Assembly (NCBI GenBank): GCA_964360785.1
Contig: CAYHXX010000001.1
Location: forward strand, 346,907 to 410,906
Source of the DNA: an uncultured Gammaproteobacteria bacterium
GTDB taxonomy: Bacteria; Patescibacteriota; Microgenomatia; Woykebacterales; RBG-16-39-9b
DNA length: 64,000 bases
Direction of reading: 5' to 3'
Shown here: piece by piece, positions 2,573 through 34,055 of the stretch
Position numbering within the stretch: position 1 is the first letter of the stretch
Layout: each line of letters starts with the position of its first letter
The notes under the pieces: generated by a model
What the model was told of the DNA's origin: nothing
What the model saw: the letters and a program-made list of their open reading frames with translations, nothing else
Database searches by the model: none
Position numbers and translations under genes: made by a program

Positions 2573-3701
2573 ATCTTCTTTCCAGATAATCGACCGCTGC
2601 CAGCAAATAATCTGATCCTTCGGATGAGAGTTTGACCCCCGAAAGTGCCTGGCGAGACTGTTCTAGAAGCCTCATACTCAGTTTAATACAGTAATCATAT
2701 GCCCCTGTAGCTTTCATTATTTTTCCTACTTGGTCAATTTCTTCTTTCGAGGACTGCTTGTTGCCGACAACTTTTGTTAGCAACTTTTTTTGACGAGTAT
2801 TTGCTCTCTCCAAAGCCTTTGCTAGCAGGAGAGTCTTTTTCCCTTCTTTGATATCACTATCGTTTGGCTTACCAATTTCATCTTCGCTTCCAAAAGTTCC
2901 GACAATATCATCTTGCATCTGGAAAGCTTGGCCGAAAGGAATACCGTAAGCTGTAAAGGTCTCGAGAACTTTATAATCAGCACCGGCGAGCATCGCGCCA
3001 ATGTGCAGTGGGCGCTCCACCGTATATTTTGCAGTTTTGTACTCGAGAATCTGCAAAACTTCATCCTCCGTCAAGGATTTTTTATAGCCTCCCAAAACAT
3101 CCAAATACTCACCATAGATAACTTGGGTTTTCATCTGGTCAAAAAAATACCGCGCTCGACGCAGTCTTTCCTGGGGAAAGGGAGCAGAGGTGAGCACTTC
3201 CTCGGCAAAACTTAGGGCCAGGTCCCCTGCTAGTATCGCAGACGACAAACCGTATTCTTTTGGATTTCCCTGTAATTTTCTTTGTTGGTGGGTTTTCTCA
3301 AATTGTTTGTGAGTCGTGAGTTGGTTTCTCCGCAGGTCAGAATTGTCAATAATATCATCATGCATCAAGGCAAAGACATGGAGTAGCTCCACTGCCATGC
3401 AGGCGTAGAGAATACTGTCATGGGCCCGACCACCAGAAGCTACATAACCAGAGTAAACAAAGGCTGGCCGGACTCTTTTTCCACCGTTGAGAGAAAAGCG
3501 AATGATTTCATCGACCAAAGCTGCAGCCTCTGGATTTATTTCAGTGGCTTCTTTCTTTTTTTCTTCGAGAAAGAGGAGCAGTTGTTGGTCAAACTCTTGT
3601 CGGAACCACTCAAGATAGTTTTCAGCATCTAGTCGTTCTTTGTTTTGAAATTCGCTGCCGAAACCAGAAACAAAAGGCTGTAAATTTGGAATTTCTTTCA
3701 T
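2565..3701 (-). CDS. Polyprenyl (geranylgeranyl/farnesyl) diphosphate synthase
   Basis: Two aspartate-rich motifs: LMHDDIIDNSDLRR (FARM) and FQMQDDIVGTFG (SARM). Confidence 0.8.
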   Translation of the reverse strand: MKEIPNLQPFVSGFGSEFQNKERLDAENYLEWFRQEFDQQLLLFLEEKKKEATEINPEAAALVDEIIRFSLNGGKRVRPAFVYSGYVASGGRAHDSILYACMAVELLHVFALMHDDIIDNSDLRRNQLTTHKQFEKTHQQRKLQGNPKEYGLSSAILAGDLALSFAEEVLTSAPFPQERLRRARYFFDQMKTQVIYGEYLDVLGGYKKSLTEDEVLQILEYKTAKYTVERPLHIGAMLAGADYKVLETFTAYGIPFGQAFQMQDDIVGTFGSEDEIGKPNDSDIKEGKKTLLLAKALERANTRQKKLLTKVVGNKQSSKEEIDQVGKIMKATGAYDYCIKLSMRLLEQSRQALSGVKLSSEGSDYLLAAVDYLERRFN

Positions 3702-4627: not shown

Positions 4628-5437
4628 TCAGGGTGGTGGCGGAACGGCGGGTATTGCGGTCAGAGCAGCGATCACCAAGACAACCGCGGTGGCCGTGATG
4701 GGCCAAGAAAGGCCATCAAGGTACCATGGCAACCCTGCTTGAACACCCGAATTGACCGCATGCGCCATTGACCAGAAATCGATCTTTGGCACGCACACAC
4801 AGTAGTTCCAGTTTGTTCTGGACTCCCAAATGCCGAAGCATTGGCGTCCCGGTTCGTACCAGCTGGCAATGTGTATGCCAACGTAGACCACGTTCTTTCC
4901 GTATTCGGTGACACGGAAGTCAGCGTGGTTTACATCTCGATTGATACAACCACGAACAGTCCCGTAGTGGGTGCCACCACTCACTGACAATGGCCAAACG
5001 CCAAACTGCCAGGCTTCACTTTCGGAAGTACCTCCTGGCAGAAAATCACTCTTTGGCTGCGCACCAAGGAAGATTTTGGCATCATAGCCCGGGTTGTCAG
5101 TGAAGATCTTGGTGTACCGCTCGATTGAGTCGGTAATCCAAGATGGCTGATCGCTCTCCTGGTGATGAGGCTGTTCGAAACCTATAGCTGGTGGTCGATT
5201 AAGACCACTAAGATCCACTTCCTCCTTCAGGCCACCCACTTCACTCGGCTGAGACCTTGTGTACAATCCGGTGTCGCGGTTCAGCACATAGGCCTCATCG
5301 AAACCCGAAAAATCCACTCCCTCATCAAGGAAATGGTTGAGGACATCTGGTACATGGCTGCTTGCCAAGGCAAACGTACCTGCACCAAATCCCGCTGCGG
5401 ACAGTTGGAGCATTCTTCTCCGTGATATCCTGTCCAA
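4628..5437 (-). CDS. Tat-signal secreted protein with C-terminal TM anchor (GC-rich gene)
   Basis: N-terminal twin-arginine motif SRRRMLQLSAAGFGAG. C-terminal hydrophobic segment ending PPPP. GC above flanks. Confidence 0.45.
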   Translation of the reverse strand: MDRISRRRMLQLSAAGFGAGTFALASSHVPDVLNHFLDEGVDFSGFDEAYVLNRDTGLYTRSQPSEVGGLKEEVDLSGLNRPPAIGFEQPHHQESDQPSWITDSIERYTKIFTDNPGYDAKIFLGAQPKSDFLPGGTSESEAWQFGVWPLSVSGGTHYGTVRGCINRDVNHADFRVTEYGKNVVYVGIHIASWYEPGRQCFGIWESRTNWNYCVCVPKIDFWSMAHAVNSGVQAGLPWYLDGLSWPITATAVVLVIAALTAIPAVPPPP

Positions 5438-5527
5438 GAGATAACCTCCGTTACTGACTAGACACCAACCGACAGAGCGCCCTTTCCTCTCCTTTCTTCT
5501 ACTAACCCGCTTTAAAGAAGATAATAA

Positions 5528-5767
5528 TCAAATGTTAAGTACTCTCTCGTTATCAACTCTCAAAATTTTCACTCTTACCAACTGCTTGCTTGAATTCAAA
5601 AATTCCACATCTTCACCTTGATTTCTCCCTAATATTGCCTTACCGACTGGAGAGCTAACAGAAATTTCATTTAACTGCTTATTCGGAGAAGATGATGATA
5701 GAAAGTAAAACCCGTCACCGTCTTCAAACTGAAGATGAACTTTACAACTAAGCTCAACTGTTTTCAT
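5528..5767 (-). CDS. GreA/GreB C-terminal (FKBP-like) domain-only protein
   Basis: SPVGKAILGRNQGEDVEF resembles the GreA C-terminal domain motif SPVGKALLGKKVGDEV. It lacks the coiled-coil N-domain. Confidence 0.4.
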   Translation of the reverse strand: MKTVELSCKVHLQFEDGDGFYFLSSSSPNKQLNEISVSSPVGKAILGRNQGEDVEFLNSSKQLVRVKILRVDNERVLNI

Positions 5768-5874
5768 TGTGGGAATTTTATAGGTAGAAGTTGCCCTAGA
5801 TCAGTCCTAGAAGAGTATCTAGGAGGTTCTTTTTAATAAATAATTATTTGTAGTGTTTTCGAGATAGGAAAATT

Positions 5875-6102: not shown

Positions 6103-6356
6103 TAGTGGAGGACAAGAACCGCTGTTTCAACTTCCTTTGGAACGTCAATTCCCTCTTCACGGGCAACTTCTACCCAACCCGTCATCGCATCCATAACATT
6201 CTTCAATGATTCATCGATAGTTTTTCCAAAGGAAACACAGCCAGGAAGTGTCGGTACCGTTATAGTAAAACCACCTTCTTCTTCTGGCTCAAGTTCGAAA
6301 ACTATTCCATTCTTAATAACTTGAAACTTTTCCATTTGCAATGATTCTAGCACCAT
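6102..6356 (-). CDS. hicB: Type II antitoxin HicB (UPF0150)
   Basis: FTITVPTLPGCVSFGKTIDESL is the classic HicB N-terminal fold motif. Overlaps hicA by 1 nt. Confidence 0.7.
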   Translation of the reverse strand: MVLESLQMEKFQVIKNGIVFELEPEEEGGFTITVPTLPGCVSFGKTIDESLKNVMDAMTGWVEVAREEGIDVPKEVETAVLVLH

Positions 6357-6389
6357 GATTTGTTGGAGTAAAGTTTGGATATACCCAAA

Positions 6390-7787
6390 TTAACTTTTGT
6401 AATGCTTTTCGAGGTAGGAAATCCTCCATGCGAGATCGTGAATCGCTTCTTTCTTTAGGGAAATAAAGGCGCTACGAGACGTGGCTTGATAGTCAGTCGG
6501 AAATTGGATGGCAAAACGTGGCTTCTGACCATCCCCATTTTCAGCAATTCCCAGTGGGTACTCCTCAAAACCCAAATCCCAAAGAATCTGCCCTTCTTCT
6601 GTTTGGTTAGCAATCATTTTCAGAATATTGTACTTTAATGTTGCTTTAGTCCGAATATTTTCGTCTGGTTTAAAATACTCAATTGAGTCTTTAATTAAGT
6701 CGCGAAGTTTATCAAGGCTTGGTTTTGGATTGGAAATGGTAACCGATTTTAGCCGCATTAATGTACTTGTCTCCAACCTTTCCGGCCGCTGTAGGTTTCG
6801 TAAAGCAATATTCACTTCTTCATCGGTAACCCGAGGGAAACTAATCTCCCCTTGGAAGATATTTCTGACAAAACTCATTATCCAATCGTATGTTGTATGT
6901 GTTAATAAAACTAAAATAATGAAAACTGACAAGAGAATTAAATTCTTTACGCCAAAGTTTACTTGGAATGAAAGTAAGGATCCCAGATAAACTAAGACGA
7001 TAATCGCTACCGTAAAAGTCGAGTAAAGAAATTCTTTTCCTAGACTAGTTTTTGCCCCGTCCAAGAAAAGCCGGTTGAAAAATACACTGGCCGCAAGCGA
7101 TACTATTGCCAAAGAAATAATCACTTCTCCTGCTTCTTTAATTAACTTAATCGGACCAACAACAAAGGTAGAAACGATGAGTATGACTCCAAGGGAAAAG
7201 ACCAGCGAAGTCACTAGTGGGAAAAGGTATTTTAATTTTCCTTCATCTCCACTCCTTGCTTTTTTGTAAAGCTCAAAAAGATTGCGGCTGGTTAAAAAGA
7301 AGTAACTTAGGACAAAACCAATAGCGGGAAAGAATAGCGGCCCTTTGGCGTAAATATATTTGAAGCGACTAACCGGATAAATCACTTTATCGTAATTGAG
7401 CACAAGATCTGTCTTGAGCTCCAAAAAACTAAAGAACAAGGCGAGCAAATAGCCAAGGAGGACAAGCAATTTCCATTTCTTCTGGTCATTTTTCTTTAAC
7501 ATTAGAACCGACACCTGCAACCATATCGCAGCAGGTAGGTAAATTGTAAAAGCGTTAAGCCGAAAAATAGTTCTGAATTCCTCTAGAGAATTGCTACTAA
7601 ATAAAAAGGCACCGGAAAGTAGGTAAATTGACAAACAAAAAAGTAGACTCGCGCCTACTCTGGAAAGTGTGTTAAAGGGGTTGGAAGTTAGAACAAAAAT
7701 TCCAACCCAAAAAAGGGCTGCAAAGGCAACTATGAAAATTAAAACCGCGGGATCTAACATTGCTCCTATTTTACACCCAAAAATCAA
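6390..7787 (-). CDS. Polytopic membrane protein with cytoplasmic C-terminal domain, hypothetical
   Basis: About 9 hydrophobic helices in the first 300 aa and a soluble C-terminal 160 aa. Confidence 0.5.
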   Translation of the reverse strand: MIFGCKIGAMLDPAVLIFIVAFAALFWVGIFVLTSNPFNTLSRVGASLLFCLSIYLLSGAFLFSSNSLEEFRTIFRLNAFTIYLPAAIWLQVSVLMLKKNDQKKWKLLVLLGYLLALFFSFLELKTDLVLNYDKVIYPVSRFKYIYAKGPLFFPAIGFVLSYFFLTSRNLFELYKKARSGDEGKLKYLFPLVTSLVFSLGVILIVSTFVVGPIKLIKEAGEVIISLAIVSLAASVFFNRLFLDGAKTSLGKEFLYSTFTVAIIVLVYLGSLLSFQVNFGVKNLILLSVFIILVLLTHTTYDWIMSFVRNIFQGEISFPRVTDEEVNIALRNLQRPERLETSTLMRLKSVTISNPKPSLDKLRDLIKDSIEYFKPDENIRTKATLKYNILKMIANQTEEGQILWDLGFEEYPLGIAENGDGQKPRFAIQFPTDYQATSRSAFISLKKEAIHDLAWRISYLEKHYKS

Positions 7788-23787: not shown

Positions 23788-24510
23788 TTAGTTATTACCC
23801 CCACTCCCAGAATTACTCTCGACTTCTGTCTCGGTTTTGCCGTCATTATCGTCGTCCTGGTCTTCTTTATCTGCTACCCCATCCTTATCCTTATCATCCT
23901 CAAAGGTTTGAACTGAGTTTGAATCCGCGCTGTCCTTATCGTCCTTGTCCTCAACCCCATCGTTATCTCTATCCTCGTCATCTTTGTCAGAATCATCCTT
24001 GATACTGTCGTTATCATCATCGTCATCTATTTTATCGGAAATATTGTCGTTGTCATGGTCAAGCTCGTGGCTATCAGCAGTATCCACAAGACCATCCTCA
24101 TCGTCATCCAGATCGTCCATGTCTCCCAAACCATCGTTGTCGTGATCAAACAAAGCTTGGTCCCCACTTTTATCCTCCAAACCATCCTCATCGTCATCAC
24201 TATCCTGGTCATCGTCTAGGCTGTCGTTATCGTGGTCCTTTGGTTTAGCGTCATTAACATCAAGTACTCCATCGTTGTCGTCATCTTTATCCACGGAATC
24301 TTTGATCCCGTCATTATCATTATCAAAAGCCGAAAGTACCTTTACTTGATTTGAAGTGCCCTCAGTTCCAGAATTATCCCCAACGAAATACCAGATACCA
24401 GCAACAATGGCGATTGTACCAATTAGAACTAATCCAACAGCGGCAACTACTTTGTGAGTAAAGAAATTAGGATTTTTAGCCAAAGGATTTGGAACAGGCT
24501 GATCGAGCAT
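23788..24510 (-). CDS. N-terminally anchored highly acidic Asp-rich repeat protein (TSP3/calcium-binding-like), paralog B
   Basis: Same N-terminus as 21237..22136. C-terminus is iterated DxDxDGxxDxxD-like repeats (DNDGIKDSVDKDDDNDGVLDVNDAK...). Confidence 0.55.
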   Translation of the reverse strand: MLDQPVPNPLAKNPNFFTHKVVAAVGLVLIGTIAIVAGIWYFVGDNSGTEGTSNQVKVLSAFDNDNDGIKDSVDKDDDNDGVLDVNDAKPKDHDNDSLDDDQDSDDDEDGLEDKSGDQALFDHDNDGLGDMDDLDDDEDGLVDTADSHELDHDNDNISDKIDDDDDNDSIKDDSDKDDEDRDNDGVEDKDDKDSADSNSVQTFEDDKDKDGVADKEDQDDDNDGKTETEVESNSGSGGNN

Positions 24511-26241: not shown

Positions 26242-26384
26242 ATAATATTTCCTGTTACAACAACCTAATATAGGAACTGGTGACCCCGGCGGGAGACAGT
26301 CCGATCCGATCGGACTAATCATTAAGAAATGAGCGAACCCAAGTGGGTTCAAACCAATGGCCAGAGATCATAAAAACAAAAAGA

Positions 26385-26414
26385 CAGGCAAAGATTGCCT
26401 GCTTTCTGTTTTGG
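26385..26414. terminator. Bidirectional intrinsic terminator
   Basis: Stem CAGGCAA/TTGCCTG with loop AGA, flanked by an A-run upstream and CTTTCTGTTTT downstream. Downstream of the XRE gene on the minus strand. Confidence 0.5.
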
Positions 26415-26499
26415 TGACCCGAACAGTACACAGTTCGAACCGGTCGTGGCTTTCTGGGACAGGATTATACAGTCTTACTGTGAAACTTCAGATCAGGAA

Positions 26500-26727
26500 C
26501 TATAAAAGTTTTGTCTTTAACACCTCTGCAATTTTGCGCAGTTTATCGTACGATGTATTTATTTCCCCACGCTCAATTCTGGCATAGTATGTGACATCCA
26601 TTCCGGATTTTTCGGCTACCTCCGCCTGAGTTAAACCAGACTTTTCTCTGGCGTCTTTTAGTTTATTGCTTAAATCTTTAGTTATTTTGTCGTTTTGATC
26701 GCTATTCATATGTGTATAGTATAACAC
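26500..26727 (-). CDS. XRE-family helix-turn-helix transcriptional regulator
   Basis: GLTQAEVAEKSGMDVTYYARIERGE is a canonical HTH_XRE. 75 aa. Confidence 0.75.
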   Translation of the reverse strand: MLYYTHMNSDQNDKITKDLSNKLKDAREKSGLTQAEVAEKSGMDVTYYARIERGEINTSYDKLRKIAEVLKTKLL

Positions 26728-26812
26728 TTAAGGAAAAAAGTGACTTATTCTTATTTTTATTTTTATAACTCATTTCACTAAAATTCGTAAACCGTTTTGA
26801 ATTAAATAGCCC

Positions 26813-26842
26813 TTGACTTTTGACTATAGGTTTATGTATACT
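26813..26842 (+). promoter_or_regulatory. Promoter TTGACT-18-TATACT with tandem TTGAC motif upstream of the 230-aa cargo gene
   Basis: TTGACT 26813-26818 and TATACT 26837-26842. RBS AAGGAG 26874-26879. Divergent from the XRE gene. Confidence 0.45.
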
Positions 26843-26884
26843 TTGCCTCAATAAATACTGACCCATCAAGCCAAAGGAGCTGCC

Positions 26885-27577
26885 ATGCAAAGGATTCGCT
26901 TGTACTGCGAAGGTATCAAGCCCGTAATGTTCGACCCAGCGTCTGAAGCATTCTTGGACAAACTGGGTACTCGTGTTCGACAACAACCAAGAACTGATAT
27001 CAATGTCGAAGAAGAGGCCAGAAGCAGAGTTCTCGTTACTGAAAGAGATTACCTGTATTTCCCGCTGGGCTACCTCTTCTCGTGCTTGGTTGAAGCGGGA
27101 AGGTTCGTCAAATACGAAGGGAAGATGAGCCTGTCAACTGCCGATTCTACTCGTCTCACCATGATCCTCACTCTCGAAGGCGAACAGGTAATTCTGGGGT
27201 TACGGGATGGTAATGGCACTTTCCAGCCACTATCCCCCGATGAATGGACCGTGGATAAGCGACGTGGGGTGAACAAAGTCACCAAAGCCCCTGTTCGTAT
27301 CATTCGTCCCAAGATTGCTCGTTGGGGTTTCGAGGTGGAAGCGGTTTTCGATAACGATCGATTCGCTCTCAGTAAACTGATCGAGCTCTTTCGGGTGGCA
27401 GGTTTGGGGATTGGAATCGGAAGCTTCCGGGCAGAAAATAAAGGCGAGTTCGGAATGTTCGAACTCAAGGAAGTAAAGATCCTCGAGGAATGGAAGCCAG
27501 AGGAGACGGTGAAGGTCGTCAGCTTGGTCGAGACCAAACCGACTACGAAACGATCAAGGTCAAAGGCTAAGCAATGA
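26885..27577 (+). CDS. Hypothetical 230-aa protein with C-terminal glycine-rich loop (RAMP-like?), GC-rich cargo gene
   Basis: Strong RBS and promoter. GC-rich with coherent codon usage. GLGIGIGSFRAENKGEFG glycine-rich loop. No catalytic motif recognised. Confidence 0.5.
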   Translation: MQRIRLYCEGIKPVMFDPASEAFLDKLGTRVRQQPRTDINVEEEARSRVLVTERDYLYFPLGYLFSCLVEAGRFVKYEGKMSLSTADSTRLTMILTLEGEQVILGLRDGNGTFQPLSPDEWTVDKRRGVNKVTKAPVRIIRPKIARWGFEVEAVFDNDRFALSKLIELFRVAGLGIGIGSFRAENKGEFGMFELKEVKILEEWKPEETVKVVSLVETKPTTKRSRSKAKQ

Positions 27578-27707
27578 CGACAACATGAGCAAGGATGCTC
27601 ATACTGAAGGCAGACCCAGATTGGGAGCTGTGACTCTGCACTGCACTCCTGTGCTTTGCTTTGTTCTCTCTAGCTATCCATTCTGTTGCAGTCTGTAGCA
27701 CAGGGCT

Positions 27708-27760
27708 GGGGGTTCTTCGACTTCGGTTGTCGAACCCCTGCCATCTTTTTTATACTTTTT
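27708..27760 (+). terminator. Intrinsic terminator after the 230-aa gene
   Basis: GGGGGTTCTTCGAC / GTCGAACCCC stem with loop TTCGGTT, then TGCCATCTTTTTT. Confidence 0.4.
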
Positions 27761-27819
27761 CCTACTGTTCAATTTTGTAATCAGCACTTTTCAGCTGAAA
27801 TAGTTCAAGGAGAAGGATC

Positions 27820-29628
27820 GTGAACCAAGGGGAACATCTTGGACCGCTCACCTTCGAGGAGCTGTCCTCTGCCTTTCCAAGGCAGTATCGGCAAATGCAC
27901 CCCAACCAGAGGGAGGCATTCAGACGAATTGCCCAAGCAAGGGGTTCGGTTACCATTGAAGCCCCAACCGGGAGTGGCAAAACCGCAATTGGCTACACTG
28001 TTCTGCGGGCGCTTGCCGCCAGAGGTGAAGGGCCTCTGTTCTATGTCGTGCCCAATAGGGCATTGGTCGGGCAGGTGCACACTTTGCACCGCGACCTCGT
28101 TGAGGTGTACGGACGGCACGAGTATGAGTGTCTCTACTTCCCGGAGCAAAATTACCGGGCGGATGAGATACCGTGCTCTCTGCTAACCGACTGTGCTCAC
28201 CGGGTTGACCAGGAAACTGGGCAAACCTTTGGACGGGGTCGACGCTGCCCGTATTACTGGGCAAAGTATCAGGCGAAGCAGAGTCAGATCGTTGTCTGCA
28301 CCATGGCTTTTTACCTCTTTACCCAACTGTTCAGTCGGGAATGGGGGGAACCTGCTGGCCTGGTGATCGATGAGACCCACCAAATTGCCAAGGTGTTCCG
28401 CAATGCCCTGAGTTTCGAGATCTCGGACTACCACCTTGAAAGTGCGATTCGGCTTCTCGAGCCGTTTGCCCCAGAAGGTGCGGCTGGTCTCGAGGTGTTT
28501 CTTGAGACGATGAACCGGATCGTGAGAATCAAACGGTCCAACACGCCAAGTTTGCTTGAAGACACCGAGATTGAAGAACTGCTGATGACGCTGATGCTTA
28601 TCGACCACAACAGGTTGCGGCAAGGGTTGTCAACGGCAGTTACGTCGGGTTCCATTGATGTCAGTCAGCACGTGGAGGTGCTCACCCGAGTCGACCGGAT
28701 CGTGCGAGATCTTGTACGTTACCTGCGTGCGTTTGAGTTCTCGCTACCGACTGAAGATCGTCACCCTCTTAACTACACCTTCGCCTATTACGACAGGGAG
28801 CAGGTAGTGGGTAGGCGAGTCAACAACCGGCTTGTGGTCAAAGCCTATCACGTTGCTCCGCTGGTAAGGAGCCTGTTGTCTTCGAGGATGACACTTGCCT
28901 ACTCGGCGACAATTGGGGATGAGAACATCTTTGCACTCGAGACAGGAATTCGTCAGCCGACCTACCACTTTGGCTCGGACTTCCCCAACGAGAATACCCG
29001 GGTGTTCATGCCAACCAATACACCGAACCTGGCAATGCAGGCTCGAGGTCGGAGGGATCTGGCTAACACCATCCGAAGGATAGCTCGGGCTTGCCGACGT
29101 TTCAATGACGCTGGGCATCGTTGCCTGGTCGTGGTGGTTTCTGATGCGGAGAGACAGAGGTTCCTGCGAATGGCGGCCGAAGAAGGTGTTGACGTCGTTT
29201 CTTATGGCGACGGTGTTAGCGCACGTGCTGCTGCTGAAAGGTTCCGTGATCGTGGCGAGGGTGGTGTGTTGTGTGGGACAGTGGCCAACTACGGGGAAGG
29301 GATTGACCTACCCGATGGTAAGGCCCCGGTGATTTTCTTCCTCCGCCCGGCGTACCCCTCTCCGAATGATCCGGCAACTCAGTTCGAGGAGCGCCGTTTT
29401 GGAAGCAGGCGCTGGTCGGTTTGGAACTGGCGTGTGATGATGGAGGCTCTCCAGGTCCGTGGTCGCAACGTGAGAAGCACAACGGATTTGGGTGTGACCT
29501 TCTTCATGTCGCAGCAGTTCCGCAGATTCCTCTACGGATCCCTGCCAAACTGGCTGCAGCCTGCCTATAGGGGAGATCTCACCTTTGACGAAGGAGTTGA
29601 GGAGGCGTTGGAGGTGTTGGAAAGATAG
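27820..29628 (+). CDS. XPD/DinG/Rad3-family Fe-S ATP-dependent DNA helicase (GC-rich cargo gene)
   Basis: Walker A EAPTGSGKT. Four Cys between motifs I and II (ECLYF, PCSLL, TDCAH, RRCPYY with the CPY signature). DExH box VIDETHQ. C-terminal helicase_C_2-like VANYGEGIDLPDG. GTG start with AAGGAG RBS. Confidence 0.7.
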   Translation: MNQGEHLGPLTFEELSSAFPRQYRQMHPNQREAFRRIAQARGSVTIEAPTGSGKTAIGYTVLRALAARGEGPLFYVVPNRALVGQVHTLHRDLVEVYGRHEYECLYFPEQNYRADEIPCSLLTDCAHRVDQETGQTFGRGRRCPYYWAKYQAKQSQIVVCTMAFYLFTQLFSREWGEPAGLVIDETHQIAKVFRNALSFEISDYHLESAIRLLEPFAPEGAAGLEVFLETMNRIVRIKRSNTPSLLEDTEIEELLMTLMLIDHNRLRQGLSTAVTSGSIDVSQHVEVLTRVDRIVRDLVRYLRAFEFSLPTEDRHPLNYTFAYYDREQVVGRRVNNRLVVKAYHVAPLVRSLLSSRMTLAYSATIGDENIFALETGIRQPTYHFGSDFPNENTRVFMPTNTPNLAMQARGRRDLANTIRRIARACRRFNDAGHRCLVVVVSDAERQRFLRMAAEEGVDVVSYGDGVSARAAAERFRDRGEGGVLCGTVANYGEGIDLPDGKAPVIFFLRPAYPSPNDPATQFEERRFGSRRWSVWNWRVMMEALQVRGRNVRSTTDLGVTFFMSQQFRRFLYGSLPNWLQPAYRGDLTFDEGVEEALEVLER

Positions 29629-29757
29629 GGCGATCGTGAACCCAGGGTTATAGCTACTCTCTTGAGTACGCCGTAACGACCCTGGGTTTTTCATTTCTAG
29701 ATTTACCAGCTGAAAGGCTGGTTTTTTGTTGATTAAATCCTAAAGCGCAGGGTAATA

Positions 29758-30639
29758 TTACTCTTTTCTGACTATTGTCCAGATATTATCACTACCCAAC
29801 CCTTCTTCGGTTGCTTGCTTTAAAGTTGTTAGTAAAAACGTTATTTCTTCGAGGTCGTAAGAACTGTCAAGTTGTTTTTTAATGTATTTGCCAATCTGGT
29901 TTAATTTTTGTTGGTTGGGAAAAATTAGCAGAAGAATAGGGAATTTTCTGTCCAAGCCGCTAAATCTATGTTTCCCCCCTTCACTTTGATTAAATTTAAT
30001 ATATTGGTCTACTTTATACCTGAGAGCATATCTTGGAACACCTGGGTCAAAGAGTTGCAGAAAGTAAGTTTGAGAGCTATTGTCTTCTTGATCAGGATTA
30101 ATTAATTTTTCAAAGTAAATATCTGGAATAATTTCCTTGATCTTTTCAAAATCGTCTTCTTTGTATAAATCCATCTTTTCAGTTATCCAAAGTTCTGTTT
30201 TTGTAGCGAACTGATACTCTATGTTAGTACTTTTCTTTTGTTTTTCCTTGAGCTGGATATAGAAGTCAAAGAGGCTGATGCAGTGATCAATAAAAGTTTG
30301 GGAGGCGTGTTTATCCTCATAGAACTTTTTAATAAGCTTAAAGTCCAGTTTTTCATTATCTGCCTGGTAAGCTTCACCCTTTTCAAAACGTGCCCATAAG
30401 ATGCCGTTATTCGCCAGGTAATAGATGGCAGGTTTGGTATTTTCGAGTAGCTTGTGGGAATATATCCTGCCTAAATAACCTTTTTCCACTAAATCTTTAA
30501 GCCAGACGTTAATTCTTTTTGGATCCTTGTGGTCAAGAATCCTTTGTATTTGTTTCCGGTTAATAAACCGAAACCTGTAAACAAGATCAACTATCTCTTT
30601 TTGTTTTTCAGTTATCTCGGGACGTTCTTTGTAGTTCAT
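29758..30639 (-). CDS. Replication-relaxation family protein (winged-helix N-domain)
   Basis: N-terminus ITEKQKEIVDLVYRFRFINRKQIQRIL matches the replication-relaxation (PF13814-like) pattern. Sits beside the palindromic ori-like site. Confidence 0.45.
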   Translation of the reverse strand: MNYKERPEITEKQKEIVDLVYRFRFINRKQIQRILDHKDPKRINVWLKDLVEKGYLGRIYSHKLLENTKPAIYYLANNGILWARFEKGEAYQADNEKLDFKLIKKFYEDKHASQTFIDHCISLFDFYIQLKEKQKKSTNIEYQFATKTELWITEKMDLYKEDDFEKIKEIIPDIYFEKLINPDQEDNSSQTYFLQLFDPGVPRYALRYKVDQYIKFNQSEGGKHRFSGLDRKFPILLLIFPNQQKLNQIGKYIKKQLDSSYDLEEITFLLTTLKQATEEGLGSDNIWTIVRKE

Positions 30640-30849
30640 AAGATCATTCCAGTTTATTAATAGTTATTTAATTGGCAGATTTCTAGATTTAGGACAGGAG
30701 GTTTATTAGTTGGGCAGGGAAACTTAAAGGAGCAGAGGTTTAGGGGATTATACACATTTACTCAGCAACATTACTACTTCTCTTCCTTTTACCTTGTAAA
30801 AGGGTAAAGACCGGAAATTAAAATTCCTTTAATAAACCTAATATAAGCT

Positions 30850-30904
30850 CGTACGTAGCCACGACCCGTGTCCTAGACAGTTAGGACACAGCCCATGCGT
30901 ACGT
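30850..30904. promoter_or_regulatory. 55-bp imperfect palindrome; putative recombination/oriT/operator site
   Basis: CGTACGT-(11)-GTGTCCTA-(6)-TAGGACAC-(8)-CGTACGT. Followed by AT-rich iterons, with ATATGTATAT at 30938 and 30961. Confidence 0.45.
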
Positions 30905-30986
30905 GCGAACTATTTTTACTAATTGACAACTATACACATATGTATATATAATATATACAGATATGTATATGTAACTTGCCTAACTC

Positions 30987-31316
30987 TTGGATATGAAAGT
31001 ACTAGATTCGGAACAATTGGAAATTAGACCTAAACAACGAGAATTTAAACTCCTAGAACAACAAGATGTCTACGAAAACCTCAATCAACATCTTTCCGAA
31101 CAAGAAAAGGAACAAAGAATCATTCTCGAAGCTCGAGATATCTTAGGAGAAGCTGCGGAAAACCTAACTGATGAGCAAATTTGCAATTTAGTAAGTGAGA
31201 TTCAATATCTGGTTGATACTTGGTTAGAGGAATTTGAAACAAAGGTTTATGGGGGTAAGACCTTAAGTGAGTTACTACACCTAAATTATCATGAACACAC
31301 CGTTTCCAGCAAATAA
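30987..31316 (+). CDS. Hypothetical acidic protein upstream of and overlapping the recombinase (possible directionality/accessory factor)
   Basis: TTG start. Overlaps the recombinase start by 26 nt. No motif recognised. Confidence 0.35.
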   Translation: MDMKVLDSEQLEIRPKQREFKLLEQQDVYENLNQHLSEQEKEQRIILEARDILGEAAENLTDEQICNLVSEIQYLVDTWLEEFETKVYGGKTLSELLHLNYHEHTVSSK

Positions 31317-32838
31317 TATTTCAGAACCAAGAAAAGCTGTTATCTATATCCGAGTTTCTTCTGAGGAACAAGTAGAAAACTTTTCTTTGGGAACACAGGA
31401 GGAAATATGCCGCAGAGATGCGAAATATAAAGGTTATGAAATAGCGGAAGTATTTAAGGAAGAGGGTCGCTCAGCAAAAACTATTATTGGAAGGCCAGTG
31501 CTACTTGAAATGCTCGACTTTTGCAGAAAAAACAAGAAAGATCTTCAAGCGGTTTATGTTTACCGACTTGATAGATTATCCAGGCAAACTTCCGATTACC
31601 TAGCAATAAGAAAAAGGCTTGCCGACTATAATATCGCTATTCTTTCCGCAACTGAACCAACAGGAAATTCACCAACAGAAAAATTACTTGAAACTGTTCT
31701 GGCAAGTTTTGCTCAACACGATAATGACGTGCGAAGTGAAAGAACGAAAAACGGTATGCGAGCAAGGTTTTTATCAGGCCTGATTACAAACAAGTTAACC
31801 GCTGGGTATGTTAATCAAGGTGGCTATGCTATTAAAGATTCGGAAAAGTTTGAAACTATTAAAAAAGCTTGGGACTTAATGGCAACGGGAACAAAGAGTT
31901 TAAGAGAAATAAGAACTATTTTAAGTTGCTGGGGAGTTGAGATAAAACCGCACGCGATTCACGCAATGTTCCACAATAAGTTCTACATGGGCATATTAAG
32001 CTCTCCAAAATACCCAGAGGAGGTTCGTGGTCAGCACTCTCCTATGGTTACTGAAGAGCAGTTCTATAAAGTACAAGCAATTTTGGACGGTCGCGATACA
32101 AACAGGTTGGTTATGCCACGGAAAAGCAGAGATAACAAAGACTTTCCTCTGAGAAGGATCGTTAGATGCGGTAGATGTGGCACTCCGTTTACTGGAGCCA
32201 AAACCAAAGGGAGAAGTGAATACTATTCATATTATTTTTGTCGAAAAAGATGTGTTAATACTTCGGTGCCAGTTGAAACTTTAGACAAGTCATTAGGAAA
32301 CCTGCTCCAAATTCTTAACCCTACTGAAAACGGAATAAAACTTTACTGCAACGCCCTTATCAAAACCTACAACAAGAAAATGTTTCGACTTGAGAAAACT
32401 AAGAATGGAGCTGACGAGGAGATCAAGAAGCTTTTTGGACTCCGACAGACTTTAGTTGAAAAAAACCTAGCTGGAACTTTTTCAGATGAGATCTTTAAAG
32501 AACAGAACGCCGTTATTGAAGAAAAACTAATAGCTGCTCAAGCCTCAAAAAATGACGCTCTCATTGATAAGTACGATATCGCCGCAATTGTAGCCTTTAT
32601 CGAAACTAAACTAGCCGATATTGCCCAAACCTATTTTAGCTCGACTCTTAGCCAAGCTCGCTGCCTTCTCGGTTCGATATTTCTCTCGGGATTGAGTTGG
32701 GACTATCCTGGTTGTTCGAACCGCGGTATTAGCCCGATATATCAAGGTATTATTGATGTTGAAAGTAAGGGTGTTCCCTTTGGTGACCCCGGCGGGATTC
32801 GAACCCGCGATCTCTTGGATGAAAACCAAGTATCCTAA
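31291..32838 (+). CDS. Large serine recombinase (integrase)
   Basis: Resolvase catalytic domain AVIYIRVSSEEQ, recombinase domain and zinc ribbon CGRCGTPF...CRKRC. The ORF reads through into the tRNA-Glu gene, so the last about 19 aa are tRNA-encoded. Confidence 0.8.
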   Translation: MNTPFPANNISEPRKAVIYIRVSSEEQVENFSLGTQEEICRRDAKYKGYEIAEVFKEEGRSAKTIIGRPVLLEMLDFCRKNKKDLQAVYVYRLDRLSRQTSDYLAIRKRLADYNIAILSATEPTGNSPTEKLLETVLASFAQHDNDVRSERTKNGMRARFLSGLITNKLTAGYVNQGGYAIKDSEKFETIKKAWDLMATGTKSLREIRTILSCWGVEIKPHAIHAMFHNKFYMGILSSPKYPEEVRGQHSPMVTEEQFYKVQAILDGRDTNRLVMPRKSRDNKDFPLRRIVRCGRCGTPFTGAKTKGRSEYYSYYFCRKRCVNTSVPVETLDKSLGNLLQILNPTENGIKLYCNALIKTYNKKMFRLEKTKNGADEEIKKLFGLRQTLVEKNLAGTFSDEIFKEQNAVIEEKLIAAQASKNDALIDKYDIAAIVAFIETKLADIAQTYFSSTLSQARCLLGSIFLSGLSWDYPGCSNRGISPIYQGIIDVESKGVPFGDPGGIRTRDLLDENQVS

Positions 32839-32856
32839 CCACTAGACGACGGGGCC
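32781..32856 (-). tRNA. tRNA-Glu (anticodon UUC), CCA encoded
   Basis: Folds as a cloverleaf: acceptor GGCCCCG/CGGGGTC, anticodon stem CTTGG/CCAAG, loop TTTTCAT giving anticodon TTC, T-loop TTCGAAT. Similar to E. coli tRNA-Glu. Confidence 0.85.
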
Positions 32857-32884: not shown

Positions 32885-32925
32885 ACCGGACCCGGGATCT
32901 CTTGGATGAAAACCAAGTATCCAGT
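32885..32925 (-). pseudogene. tRNA-Glu fragment (D-arm to anticodon arm copy), remnant
   Basis: GATCTCTTGGATGAAAACCAAGTATCC is identical to the internal part of the adjacent tRNA-Glu. It lacks a proper T-arm and acceptor stem. Confidence 0.4.
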
Positions 32926-33104: not shown

Positions 33105-34055
33105 ATGCCCGAAGAAACAAACACTTCAAACCCAACTAGTCCTACATCACCGATAGGTTCTGCACCTTCAGGTTCAGTAACCGAAAGTCCGGCGCCAACT
33201 TCTCCTACAACACCAATTGACACTAGCGTAAGCCCCATACCAAACCCAATGGCTTCTCCGGCTTCAGAACCTACTGTCACCGCAGCACCAATGCCGACAA
33301 CACCAGACCCAACACTTATACCTTCCACTCCAATGGAAGCTTCGCCGGTGATGCCAACGGTTTCAACACCCGTAACTGATACCCCTGTTGGGGTATCTGC
33401 GCCAGTAACAGAAACGCCAACACCTGTTGTACCTGAACCAACATCAGCGGAAACTACCCCTGTACCAAGGGTAGATAAACCAGTCTGGGCCAATGAACAA
33501 CCAACACCACCTATGGTAACTACCCCAGAATCAGTAACACAGCCTGTTTCTGTCCCAACACCTGAACCAACAAACTCAGTACCCACCGAAACCATACCAA
33601 TCACTACACCAATCGAACCAACTCCAAACCCAATTGAGACTGTGACAACTCCAGAGCCGCCAAAAATGCCTGAAGTCCCAGCTGTAGAAACACCAGCTCC
33701 GACGCCAGCACCTGCTATGGAACCACCAACACCACCCGCTGACAGTGACAACAATGGCCCTGCCTGGCTCCGAACTGATTCTCAAGCTCCTGCAACGCCA
33801 GAACCGGCTCCGGCAACTGCAGAATCAAGACCTGATCTTTCAAACGCACCGCTGCCATGGCAAGTCCCAAGCGAACAACCTGCAGCTGGAAACACACCGG
33901 CAGCAAATGCAGGGGGAGCAGTTGCAGCAACCGCAGCTCCAGGAGTGGAAGAGCATCACGGCTTCCCAATTATGATCTTTGTTGTACTGGTAATTGCGAT
34001 TATTGTCGCGATTGGAATATTTCTCTTTGCCAACGGCTCACTACCTGGAACGTAA
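33105..34055 (+). CDS. Pro/Thr/Glu-rich low-complexity protein with C-terminal TM anchor
   Basis: Long PT-rich sequence and a terminal hydrophobic helix IMIFVVLVIAIIVAIGIFLF. The antisense Gly-rich ORF is an artefact. Confidence 0.4.
   Translation: MPEETNTSNPTSPTSPIGSAPSGSVTESPAPTSPTTPIDTSVSPIPNPMASPASEPTVTAAPMPTTPDPTLIPSTPMEASPVMPTVSTPVTDTPVGVSAPVTETPTPVVPEPTSAETTPVPRVDKPVWANEQPTPPMVTTPESVTQPVSVPTPEPTNSVPTETIPITTPIEPTPNPIETVTTPEPPKMPEVPAVETPAPTPAPAMEPPTPPADSDNNGPAWLRTDSQAPATPEPAPATAESRPDLSNAPLPWQVPSEQPAAGNTPAANAGGAVAATAAPGVEEHHGFPIMIFVVLVIAIIVAIGIFLFANGSLPGT

Follow-up and report, generated by a model that had tools for sequence, protein, structure and literature searches.

A helicase-associated VIPR cassette, very probably the cargo of a small tRNA-Glu-integrated element

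Organisation of the locus and its carrier element

Within the window, that is, the whole 64-kb stretch of DNA that was analysed (a fraction of a contig of about 0.5 Mb), two ORFs encoding proteins of 230 and 602 amino acids were confirmed on the forward strand at the coordinates given in the preliminary description of this DNA (Table 1). They lie between an XRE gene and a replication-relaxation gene on an integrative element, a placement proposed earlier that is upheld by Pfam matches, by the tRNA and by 17-bp direct repeats. The remaining genes of the element encode a 109-aa protein and a large serine recombinase.

Table 1. Features of the VIPR cassette and of the element that carries it.
Feature	Position	Strand	Basis or details
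Carrier integrative element, ~6.5 kb, in 3' end of tRNA-Glu	26278-32797	.	Direct repeats, tRNA, Pfam matches
att 17-bp direct repeat TGGTGACCCCGGCGGGA	26278-26294 and 32781-32797		Bounds the ~6.5 kb element
XRE/HTH_3 gene	26500-26727	-	Pfam, E 5e-17
Putative sigma-70-like promoter of cassette (TTGACT-18-TATACT)	26813-26842	+	Consensus scan, 10/12 matches
vipr ORF	26885-27577	+	230 aa, ATG start, AAGGAG upstream
Conserved leader AGGCAGACCCAGATTGGGAGCTGTGACTC, directly 5' of repeats	27609-27636	+	Near-identical in L008, one indel
Guide region of vrRNA: tandem repeats, 13 pentanucleotides of form N-[G/C]-[C/T]-N-N	27637-27701	+	
vrRNA 3' tail: AGGGC + extended hairpin (TGGGGGTTCTTCGAC-TTCG-GTTGTCGAACCCCTG) + CCA + T-run	27702-27752	+	
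Helicase ORF	27820-29628	+	602 aa, GTG start, AAGGAG upstream
Terminator-like hairpin and T-run closing cassette	29705-29730	+	Consensus scan
Replic_Relax gene	29758-30639	-	Pfam, 33.6 bits vs 25.3 cutoff
109-aa ORF of carrier	30987-31316	+	
Large serine recombinase	31291-32838	+	
tRNA-Glu	32781-32856	-	

The GC content of 26885-29628 was 53.6% (vipr 49.9%, helicase 55.9%) and that of the cassette 53.3%, against 42.2% for the 64-kb window and 37.6-37.7% for the carrier genes that make up the remaining element. The contrast reported earlier (57% against 40%) is therefore real, but its size was somewhat overstated, the measured values being 53.6% and 42.2%. Homology to a close orthologous locus, L008, was limited to 26824-29629, and the genomic context of L008 is different. 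A TTGACA/TAAACT pair occupies the position equivalent to the putative promoter in the orthologous cassette of L007/L008. The terminator-like hairpin falls outside the conserved cassette, since its position is some 75 nt beyond the point where L008 homology stops, within element DNA. A repeat search of the 64-kb window found no CRISPR array, tandem repeats or CRISPR repeat family, in agreement with the earlier statement that an array is absent.

A Vipr-family RAMP encoded by the first gene

Searched as a single sequence, the 230-aa protein matched no family in Pfam, NCBIfam or PADLOC, and its one match in PHROGs was phrog_4652 (E 6e-7), a family of unknown function. The earliest clue from the PDB was a sub-threshold single-sequence match (E 0.86), a word-indexed homologue search returned only three proteins, and AlphaFold run with a three-sequence alignment gave a pLDDT of only 36. 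An exhaustive HMMER search yielded a Vipr family of 2217 cluster representatives, of which 88 members, with the window protein first, were taken for a profile. The sole PDB match of this profile was the Vipr protein of Escherichia phage SUSP1 (36pp; E 7.6e-14, residues 1-192/202), to which hhalign gave a probability of 98.2% at about 20% identity; a housekeeping family, which would have spoken against an interference role, was not among the matches. The AF2 model of the protein had a pLDDT of 93.5 and a pTM of 0.85.

The protein has the minimal RAMP fold, with a single RRM core, a thumb and a glycine-rich loop, and is a Vipr-family RAMP, i.e. a minimal Cas7-like protein. Alignment to the solved Vipr places its C-terminal G-rich loop GIGIGSFRAENKGEFG (residues ~175-190), guessed earlier to be a RAMP-type G-loop, over the G-loop of that structure. 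The thumb arginine and the aromatic-arginine pair of the G-loop are conserved between the SUSP1 and window proteins, being R141, F181 and R182 here. H17 and D177 of SUSP1 Vipr, which read the first G of GGY, are replaced by D17 and S180 in the window protein, and these substitutions fit the lost conservation at the first-G position of the repeat described below.

A predicted vrRNA between the two genes

The 242-nt spacer between vipr and the helicase gene carries one predicted vrRNA. The structured RNA suspected here in the preliminary description was found to be real, with a folding z of -3.96 against shuffled sequences, a covariance-model match and a conserved tail. The covariance model (R1), built from distant relatives with the window locus left out, had a single match in the 64 kb, at 27647-27746 (E 1.1e-6).

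The guide region consists of the units TGCAC TGCAC TCCTG TGCTT TGCTT TGTTC TCTCT AGCTA TCCAT TCTGT TGCAG TCTGT AGCAC. This is the longest run of N-S-Y-N-N units in the window, where the next best has eight, and shuffling never reproduced it: the longest runs had 9 units in 5000 shuffled spacers and 10 in 100 shuffles of the whole window. A looser score scan was the first to point to a tract of period 5; a strict scan of the window for YNNGG/NNNGG found nothing at the locus. Membership of the VIPR class therefore rests on the variant consensus N-S-Y-N-N, which is YNNNG-like. For VIPR repeats, the criterion applied was a tract adjoining vipr of at least four pentanucleotide units, 9-16 being typical.

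Sixty non-redundant modules, anchored by their tails and drawn from 11 loci, gave a logo with a strict 5-nt period, in which G/C and C/T were fixed over ten units and the remaining three repeat positions were near background; the window guide is in register with it. The 'G' position was C in about 25-45% of units. In the relatives, a GGGGC-stem-loop-stem-GCCA motif follows every repeat tract, and compensatory changes were found in nine of ten stem pairs of the tail hairpin, a count that is partly circular because modules were selected by requiring the hairpin (the periodicity logo is not circular in this way). A replicate logo on the GC-rich loci L030-L034 with a simple hairpin finder was too noisy; in covariance-model matches from the same loci, a set biased by the model, 114 of 130 units fitted N-S-Y-N-N. 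Arrays of 2-20+ modules, some of them separated by hammerhead ribozymes, occur in relatives; the spacer of the window gave neither a hammerhead nor another Rfam match.

Compared with L008, the spacer (84% identical, tail 92%) has changed less than the coding DNA (77-79%). The leader, almost unchanged in L008, may be a promoter, a site of processing or a 5' handle. The L008 guide differs from that of the window by one whole 5-nt unit, and among the last nine units 1 of 18 NN bases was changed. Substitutions counted by repeat position in four guide pairs, an under-powered set with one non-orthologous pair, suggest, as no more than a hint, that position 1 varies most freely. From its sequence, the intergenic RNA is predicted to be functional.

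The helicase and its linkage to vipr

Judged by its sequence, the 602-aa protein is an intact XPD/Rad3/DinG-type Fe-S helicase encoded by a vap-type accessory gene. The expected hallmarks were all located: Walker A (G51-SGKT), DExH (D184-ETH), motif III (SAT362), motif VI (Q545xxGR) and, between Walker A and DExH, the four cysteines C104, C119, C125 and C143 (the last in CPY). The motifs and cysteines are invariant in nine Vipr-linked orthologues. Pfam matches were to DEAD, DEAD_2 and Helicase_C_2, and the protein matched PADLOC typeIV_DinG (PDLC01439) over its full length (1.6e-44, 150 bits) and phrog_2488 in PHROGs (1e-39). A PDB profile search gave XPD (3e-18) and DinG (4e-9), with no solved CasDinG chain among the matches at E<=1e-3. 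The protein scored 19 bits against NCBIfam TIGR03117 cas_csf4 (cutoff 400) and stayed below the equivalog cutoffs for YoaA (42.5/680), DinG (40.4/789 and 31.1/598) and rad3 (31.4/247). The checks against Csf4, DinG and XPD that had been suggested thus place it in the XPD/DinG superfamily, and a housekeeping DinG, YoaA or XPD repair helicase is rejected, every equivalog cutoff having been missed.

The pair is adjacent across relatives at 31-78% Vipr identity. When loci were found from Vipr, the helicase lay downstream in all ten that were informative; when five were found from the helicase, vipr was directly upstream in four and within 5 kb in the fifth, and all five had vrRNA-model matches. 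The helicase is co-inherited with vipr and the vrRNA arrays. Related cassettes also occur without element genes: that of L008 adjoins alaS, and those of L030-L034 are surrounded by housekeeping genes.

Interpretation of the cassette

The combination of Vipr protein, single vrRNA and Fe-S helicase identifies the locus as a VIPR (Viral Interference Programmable Repeat) system, an already known but little-studied kind. It is very likely that 26813-29730 (~2.9 kb) forms a self-contained helicase-associated VIPR cassette, carried as cargo by the small tRNA-Glu-integrated element of a bacterium that probably belongs to CPR/Patescibacteria. The preliminary description had combined a RAMP-like protein, a DinG-like helicase, a structured RNA and a missing CRISPR array into a new defence or interference module. 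Each of these elements was borne out and the kind of system was right, but it is no longer new, as VIPR was published in preprints of April-June 2026.

By analogy with the experimentally characterised VIPRs of SUSP1 and P. fulva, vipr and the vrRNA would be transcribed from the putative promoter, and one Vipr protomer would bind per repeat, so that some 13 subunits would make up the filament. With the conserved S-Y dinucleotide masked by the thumb (R141) and G-loop (F181, R182), the variable bases would be left on display and may then pair discontinuously with dsDNA from a phage or a rival mobile element to form an R-loop or triplex. XPD-family helicases translocate 5'->3' on ssDNA. On the model of this translocation and of CasDinG in type IV-A CRISPR, the helicase could be loaded at the R-loop and would unwind or clear the target DNA, so that mere binding would become a more potent interference with transcription or replication. 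This role of the helicase is suggested by analogy.

For possible targets, the guide of the window and 61 others, taken from relatives, were searched against the window and related loci at >=80% match under seven rules (NN with skips of 0-3 and NNN with skips of 0-2), and only background scores were obtained. Four exact-pattern scans of IMG/VR were empty; the relevant CPR mobilome is probably missing from the databases. Relatives of Vipr or the helicase were likewise not found in the viral collections and GenBank phages searched.

A VIPR acting as a regulator, in which the single vrRNA targets host or element DNA (e.g. for excision, or at a host gene) and the helicase remodels the locus, is considered improbable. 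It would suit the presence of one guide only, the location of the system among core genes in many CPR genomes and the near-constancy of the guide across two hosts with 79% identity between their cassettes. However, no more than 65% of guide positions were matched anywhere in the 64-kb window, itself only part of the ~0.5 Mb contig, under any rule, and the available preprint text reports no self-targets for other VIPR types.

Even less probable is a replication or maintenance module, raised as an alternative in the preliminary description, in which the helicase would replicate or repair the element, aided by the 230-aa protein as a nucleic-acid-binding cofactor, and the hairpin would simply be a terminator. 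The pair does adjoin the Replic_Relax gene on a mobile element, and PHROGs labels the helicase family 'DNA helicase', but the GC content of the cassette is foreign to the element (53% vs 38%), the cassette occurs beside alaS and among housekeeping genes without any element genes, and this model would explain neither the RNA arrays with their 5-nt period nor the homology to Vipr. This alternative was not supported. The least credible reading, a type IV CRISPR-Cas locus reduced to a degenerate or minimal remnant in which a Csf2-like Cas7 and Csf4/DinG survive, the array and other csf genes are lost and the spacer is a decayed leader or repeat, is contradicted by the window being without an array or CRISPR repeat family, by PADLOC Cas5/6/7 models and Pfam RAMP families matching neither the 230-aa protein nor any of the 88 family members, by the PDB profile match to Vipr only, by the Csf4 score far under its cutoff and by a three-part architecture, with its RNA under purifying selection, that recurs in dozens of loci, unlike decay.

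Significance

VIPR is a newly recognised mode of protein guiding to DNA and a proposed ancestor of CRISPR RAMP effectors; repressor-type (type II) VIPRs alone are studied in depth, and none of the helicase vaps is known to have been characterised experimentally. The helicase-associated VIPR of the window is clean and compact, with about 2.9 kb, one putative promoter, a 13-repeat guide and an intact Fe-S helicase, and the close orthologue L008, whose guide differs by exactly one unit, makes it a convenient test bed. Questions that could be addressed are the contribution of the helicase to the VIPR filament, whether the N-S-Y-N-N variant retains the 1-nt-skip code and the production of a lone vrRNA without ribozymes. 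The cassette also moves as a unit between chromosome and small integrative element in ultra-small groundwater bacteria.

As a more speculative suggestion, the helicase-linked clade, apparently concentrated in CPR/Patescibacteria, may read a different code, with two S-Y positions fixed and three contiguous positions varying instead of the SUSP1 2+1 rule, and its XPD-like helicase and Cas7-like filament could represent an evolutionary step leading from VIPR towards type IV CRISPR-Cas, which has a Csf2 filament and DinG. This is rather unlikely; if true, it would give the 'VIPR preceded CRISPR' hypothesis a concrete intermediate.

Comparison with known systems

Of the CRISPR effectors, the type III Cas7 proteins Csm3 and Cmr4 share 8-17% identity with the window Vipr and have another genomic context, and neither a second RRM nor a catalytic loop is evident in the window protein. 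Type IV-A CRISPR-Cas is similar on paper, with a Cas7-type filament on a guide RNA, dsDNA that is bound uncut and a DinG-family effector; the window helicase matches PADLOC typeIV_DinG and the window Vipr resembles Csf2 in fold. However, the window has no CRISPR array, Cas6, Csf1 or Csf3, and its guide would be a gapped pentanucleotide code, whereas that of type IV-A is a contiguous spacer. The window helicase also retains all four Fe-S cysteines, and XPD is nearer to it than any solved CasDinG. In CasDinG the Fe-S domain is vestigial only.

Type II VIPR (Escherichia phage SUSP1 and a P. fulva prophage; PDB 36pp) has a Vipr homologous to that of the window and a vrRNA likewise made of a repeat tract and a tail, and the 13 repeats of the window are within the published 9-16. 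SUSP1 differs in its strict YNNGG repeat, small DNA-binding vap1, four vrRNAs and phage-encoded location. In the window the first G is not conserved, a single vrRNA is present and the accessory protein, of 602 aa, is an Fe-S helicase.

VIPR is described as a CRISPR-like RNA-guided DNA-targeting module whose loci comprise vipr, vap and vrRNA (10.64898/2026.04.26.720920), and the available text of the preprints assigns nuclease or helicase vaps to types III-V and includes variant repeats (NNNGG, YNNNG, NNNNG), single-vrRNA loci and ribozyme arrays (10.64898/2026.04.26.720920; 10.64898/2026.04.26.720927). Types III-V and the window share a Vipr RAMP, a vap enzyme, a pentanucleotide-repeat vrRNA with a structured tail and the absence of a CRISPR array; hammerhead-separated arrays like those of the relatives are described in the preprints too. 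By elimination, types III and V being the nuclease types in the text available, the window system is probably a type IV VIPR. It differs from types III-V in that the 'G' position of the repeat is G or C. Most published VIPRs are viral, whereas the helicase-linked clade was absent from the viral collections searched and appears to be cellular and CPR-borne, carried in the window by a 6.5 kb serine-recombinase element and not by a (pro)phage.

Identification of the Vipr protein

Viral Interference Programmable Repeat (VIPR) loci have been described in two 2026 preprints (bioRxiv 10.64898/2026.04.26.720920 and 10.64898/2026.04.26.720927) as comprising a minimal RAMP protein (Vipr), an accessory (vap) gene and vrRNAs, in which 9–16 YNNGG repeats precede a structured tail and whose variable NN bases recognise double-stranded DNA with a single-base skip. 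The locus studied here is a member of this family, of a helicase-associated kind. The preliminary description had recognised no relative of its 230-aa protein, and as a single query this protein indeed gave no match in Pfam, NCBIfam or PADLOC and matched only an unannotated PHROG. A single-sequence PDB search gave a sub-threshold match (E 0.86) across the G-rich loop to the "SUSP1 Vipr protein" (36pp). Three close sequences served as query in an exhaustive HMMER search, which returned 2217 cluster representatives; 88 of these, with the window protein placed first, were used to build a Vipr profile. The sole match of this profile in the whole PDB was the SUSP1 Vipr chain, over its full length (E 7.6e-14), with an hhalign probability of 98.2%.

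In SUSP1 Vipr, R138 of the thumb and W178 and R179 of the G-loop hold G2 and Y3 of the GGY motif, while H17 and D177 read G1 (2026 VIPR preprints). In the hhalign alignment the former three correspond to R141, F181 and R182 of the window protein and the latter two are replaced by D17 and S180. It was also observed that many Vipr relatives (alignment A4, P0003–P0012) have an ssrA-tag-like -AA terminus (AEAA, AQAA, PKAA, ADAA, EEAA); the window Vipr instead carries a Lys/Ser/Thr-rich C-terminal extension of 35 residues (196–230), modelled with lower confidence.

Guide RNA modules

Wherever the DNA downstream of a related Vipr gene (31–78% identity) is long enough, the next gene is that of the helicase, after a gap of 0.23–2.8 kb. 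The gaps consist of module arrays, in which every module has a variable tract of ~50 nt and then a conserved Y-GGGGC-hairpin-GCCA tail. When 60 non-redundant modules were chosen by the tail alone and their upstream sequences stacked, a strict 5-nt period was found through ten units, with one position G or C (A/T almost never), the next T or C (G almost never) and the remaining three near background. The modules of the relatives are the decisive evidence for the vrRNA. Compensatory changes were seen in nine of the ten tail stem pairs, a count which is partly circular since the hairpin had been a requirement in selecting modules. Hammerhead ribozymes lie between modules in four loci (L006, L012, L020, L021), and none was found in the window. 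A preprint (bioRxiv 10.64898/2026.04.26.720920) mentions variant consensus sequences, loci with a single vrRNA and ribozyme arrays.

The window was negative in a scan for strict YNNGG repeats. The spacer between its two genes holds 13 consecutive N-S-Y-N-N pentamers (S, G or C; Y, C or T) at 27637–27701, with a hairpin and T-run downstream. No other run of this kind in the window is as long (the runner-up has 8 units), and neither 5000 dinucleotide-shuffled spacers nor 100 shuffles of the whole window reached its length. A covariance model built on 49 modules from distant loci only gave a single match in a search of both strands of the 64-kb window, full length at 27647–27746(+) with E about 1e-6, bearing out the structured RNA that had been proposed between the genes. 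In comparison with an orthologous cassette (L007/L008, 79% identical), the spacer has diverged less than the genes: identity is 92% in the vrRNA tail, 84% in the whole spacer and 77–79% in coding DNA. A single 5-nt unit, together with a few substitutions, separates the two guides.

Two further features of the modules should be noted. CCA is found almost always directly 3' of the tail stem (L006, L009, L012, L014, L017, L018, L020, L021 and window 27741–27744), with C and A at least 90% conserved in alignment A6; this stem-NCCA end resembles a tRNA acceptor end and might be relevant to how 3' ends are processed in loci that lack ribozymes. Some arrays also contain conserved small ORFs of ~120–140 aa (L012 ~5385–5800 and 6260–6600, L020 ~3090–3440, L021 ~2395–2760), absent from the window, which begin MPL..DGL.RG.H..HV.PH.KLGRH directly after a hammerhead ribozyme and may encode a further accessory protein.

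Carrier element and mobility of the cassette

Both ORFs were confirmed as first proposed, as were the XRE repressor and Replic_Relax gene on either side and the integration in a tRNA gene.

Features of the VIPR cassette and its carrier element
Feature	Position	Strand	Remark
HTH_3/XRE gene	26500–26727	−	
Vipr gene	26885–27577	+	230 aa; AAGGAG upstream
Helicase gene	27820–29628	+	602 aa; AAGGAG upstream
Replic_Relax gene	29758–30639	−	
Large serine recombinase	31291–32838	+	
tRNA-Glu	32781–32856	−	

Direct 17-bp repeats of the tRNA 3' end (26278–26294 and 32781–32797) bound the integrated element of ~6.5 kb. The cassette stretch has 53.6% GC against 42.2% for the whole window and 37.6–37.7% for the remainder of the carrier; the contrast is thus real, yet below the "57 vs 40" initially given. 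Homology to the Saccharimonadales contig L008 is limited to 26824–29629, namely the predicted promoter, vipr, vrRNA and helicase; there the cassette follows alaS, outside any integrative element. As the shared segment lies in different contexts and exceeds its surroundings in GC in both hosts, the cassette moves as a unit. Taxonomically labelled related loci belong to Patescibacteria and copies identical to the window originate from 0.1 µm groundwater filtrates; we infer a Patescibacteria host.

The recombinase ORF overlaps the opposite-strand tRNA-Glu gene by 58 nt, and its C-terminal ~19 residues are therefore read from the antisense strand of the tRNA where the att junction lies; in a replicate sample (L002) one indel splits this gene into 137 and 369 aa. 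Additional tRNA-like fragments occur within the left end of the element (26412–26446, 74% resemblance to the att/tRNA 3' end) and just beyond tRNA-Glu (32887–32922, 94% identity to the tRNA body 32800–32835), and may have been left by earlier or tandem integrations. A 23-nt unit (TATACACATATGTATATATAATA) repeated 1.9 times at 30931–30974, in the intergenic region from which the Replic_Relax gene and a 109-aa ORF diverge, may serve the carrier as an iteron or operator. The host flanks encode an extremely Asp-rich 240-aa protein with DxDxDG-like repeats (23788–24510, −) and a Pro/Thr-rich 316-aa protein with a C-terminal membrane anchor (33105–34055, +), both low-complexity, surface-type and unrelated to the cassette.

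The helicase as accessory gene

The helicase contains the Pfam domains DEAD, DEAD_2 and Helicase_C_2. Its Walker A, DExH, motif III, motif VI and the four Cys lying between motifs I and II show no variation across nine Vipr-linked orthologues, in agreement with the XPD/DinG hallmarks first noted. The orthologue profile is nearest to XPD/Rad3 (3e-18), then CHL1, FANCJ and DinG. The protein falls far under all NCBIfam equivalog cutoffs (DinG, YoaA, rad3, Csf4), and one PADLOC "typeIV_DinG" profile matches it end to end (1.6e-44).

A reverse search was made with five helicase homologues (53–58% identity) on long Patescibacteria contigs. The Vipr gene lay directly upstream in four and within 5 kb in the fifth, and vrRNA-model matches were present in all five, often flanking the helicase on either side. 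The pair is conserved as neighbours in four of these and in every informative Vipr locus. Given this linkage, the helicase behaves like an accessory gene dedicated to VIPR rather than a repair orthologue. In several Patescibacteria genomes (L030–L034) the vipr-vrRNA-helicase locus was seen amid core genes (ClpB, RelA, HisRS, ThrRS, ArgRS, DnaG, RpoD, PolA), with modules flanking the helicase on both sides (up to ~20 in L031) and, in L032, two Vipr-like ORFs side by side.

Proposed mechanism and comparison with known systems

The three parts and their co-inheritance are demonstrated. By analogy with characterised type II systems, one Vipr would bind each repeat and sequester the S-Y dinucleotide, exposing the variable bases so that these pair with double-stranded DNA in a gapped manner. 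From XPD-family biochemistry and the CasDinG precedent, the helicase may be loaded at the R-loop and make interference stronger. The guide matched no target in the window or the related loci examined under any of seven rules (NN skip 0–3, NNN skip 0–2), nor in four exact-pattern scans of IMG/VR.

In the preprint (bioRxiv 10.64898/2026.04.26.720920), VIPR types III and V are given as the nuclease types, so by elimination the locus is probably the type IV described there. The original reading as a defence or interference module is supported, and its hoped-for novelty has been overtaken by the 2026 preprints; moderate interest is left in the putative helicase role and in the relaxed N-S-Y-N-N code. 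An assignment to type IV CRISPR-Cas was rejected because a CRISPR array, whose absence from the window had been reported correctly, Csf1, Csf3 and Cas6 are all missing, although on paper the VIPR locus works much like that system.
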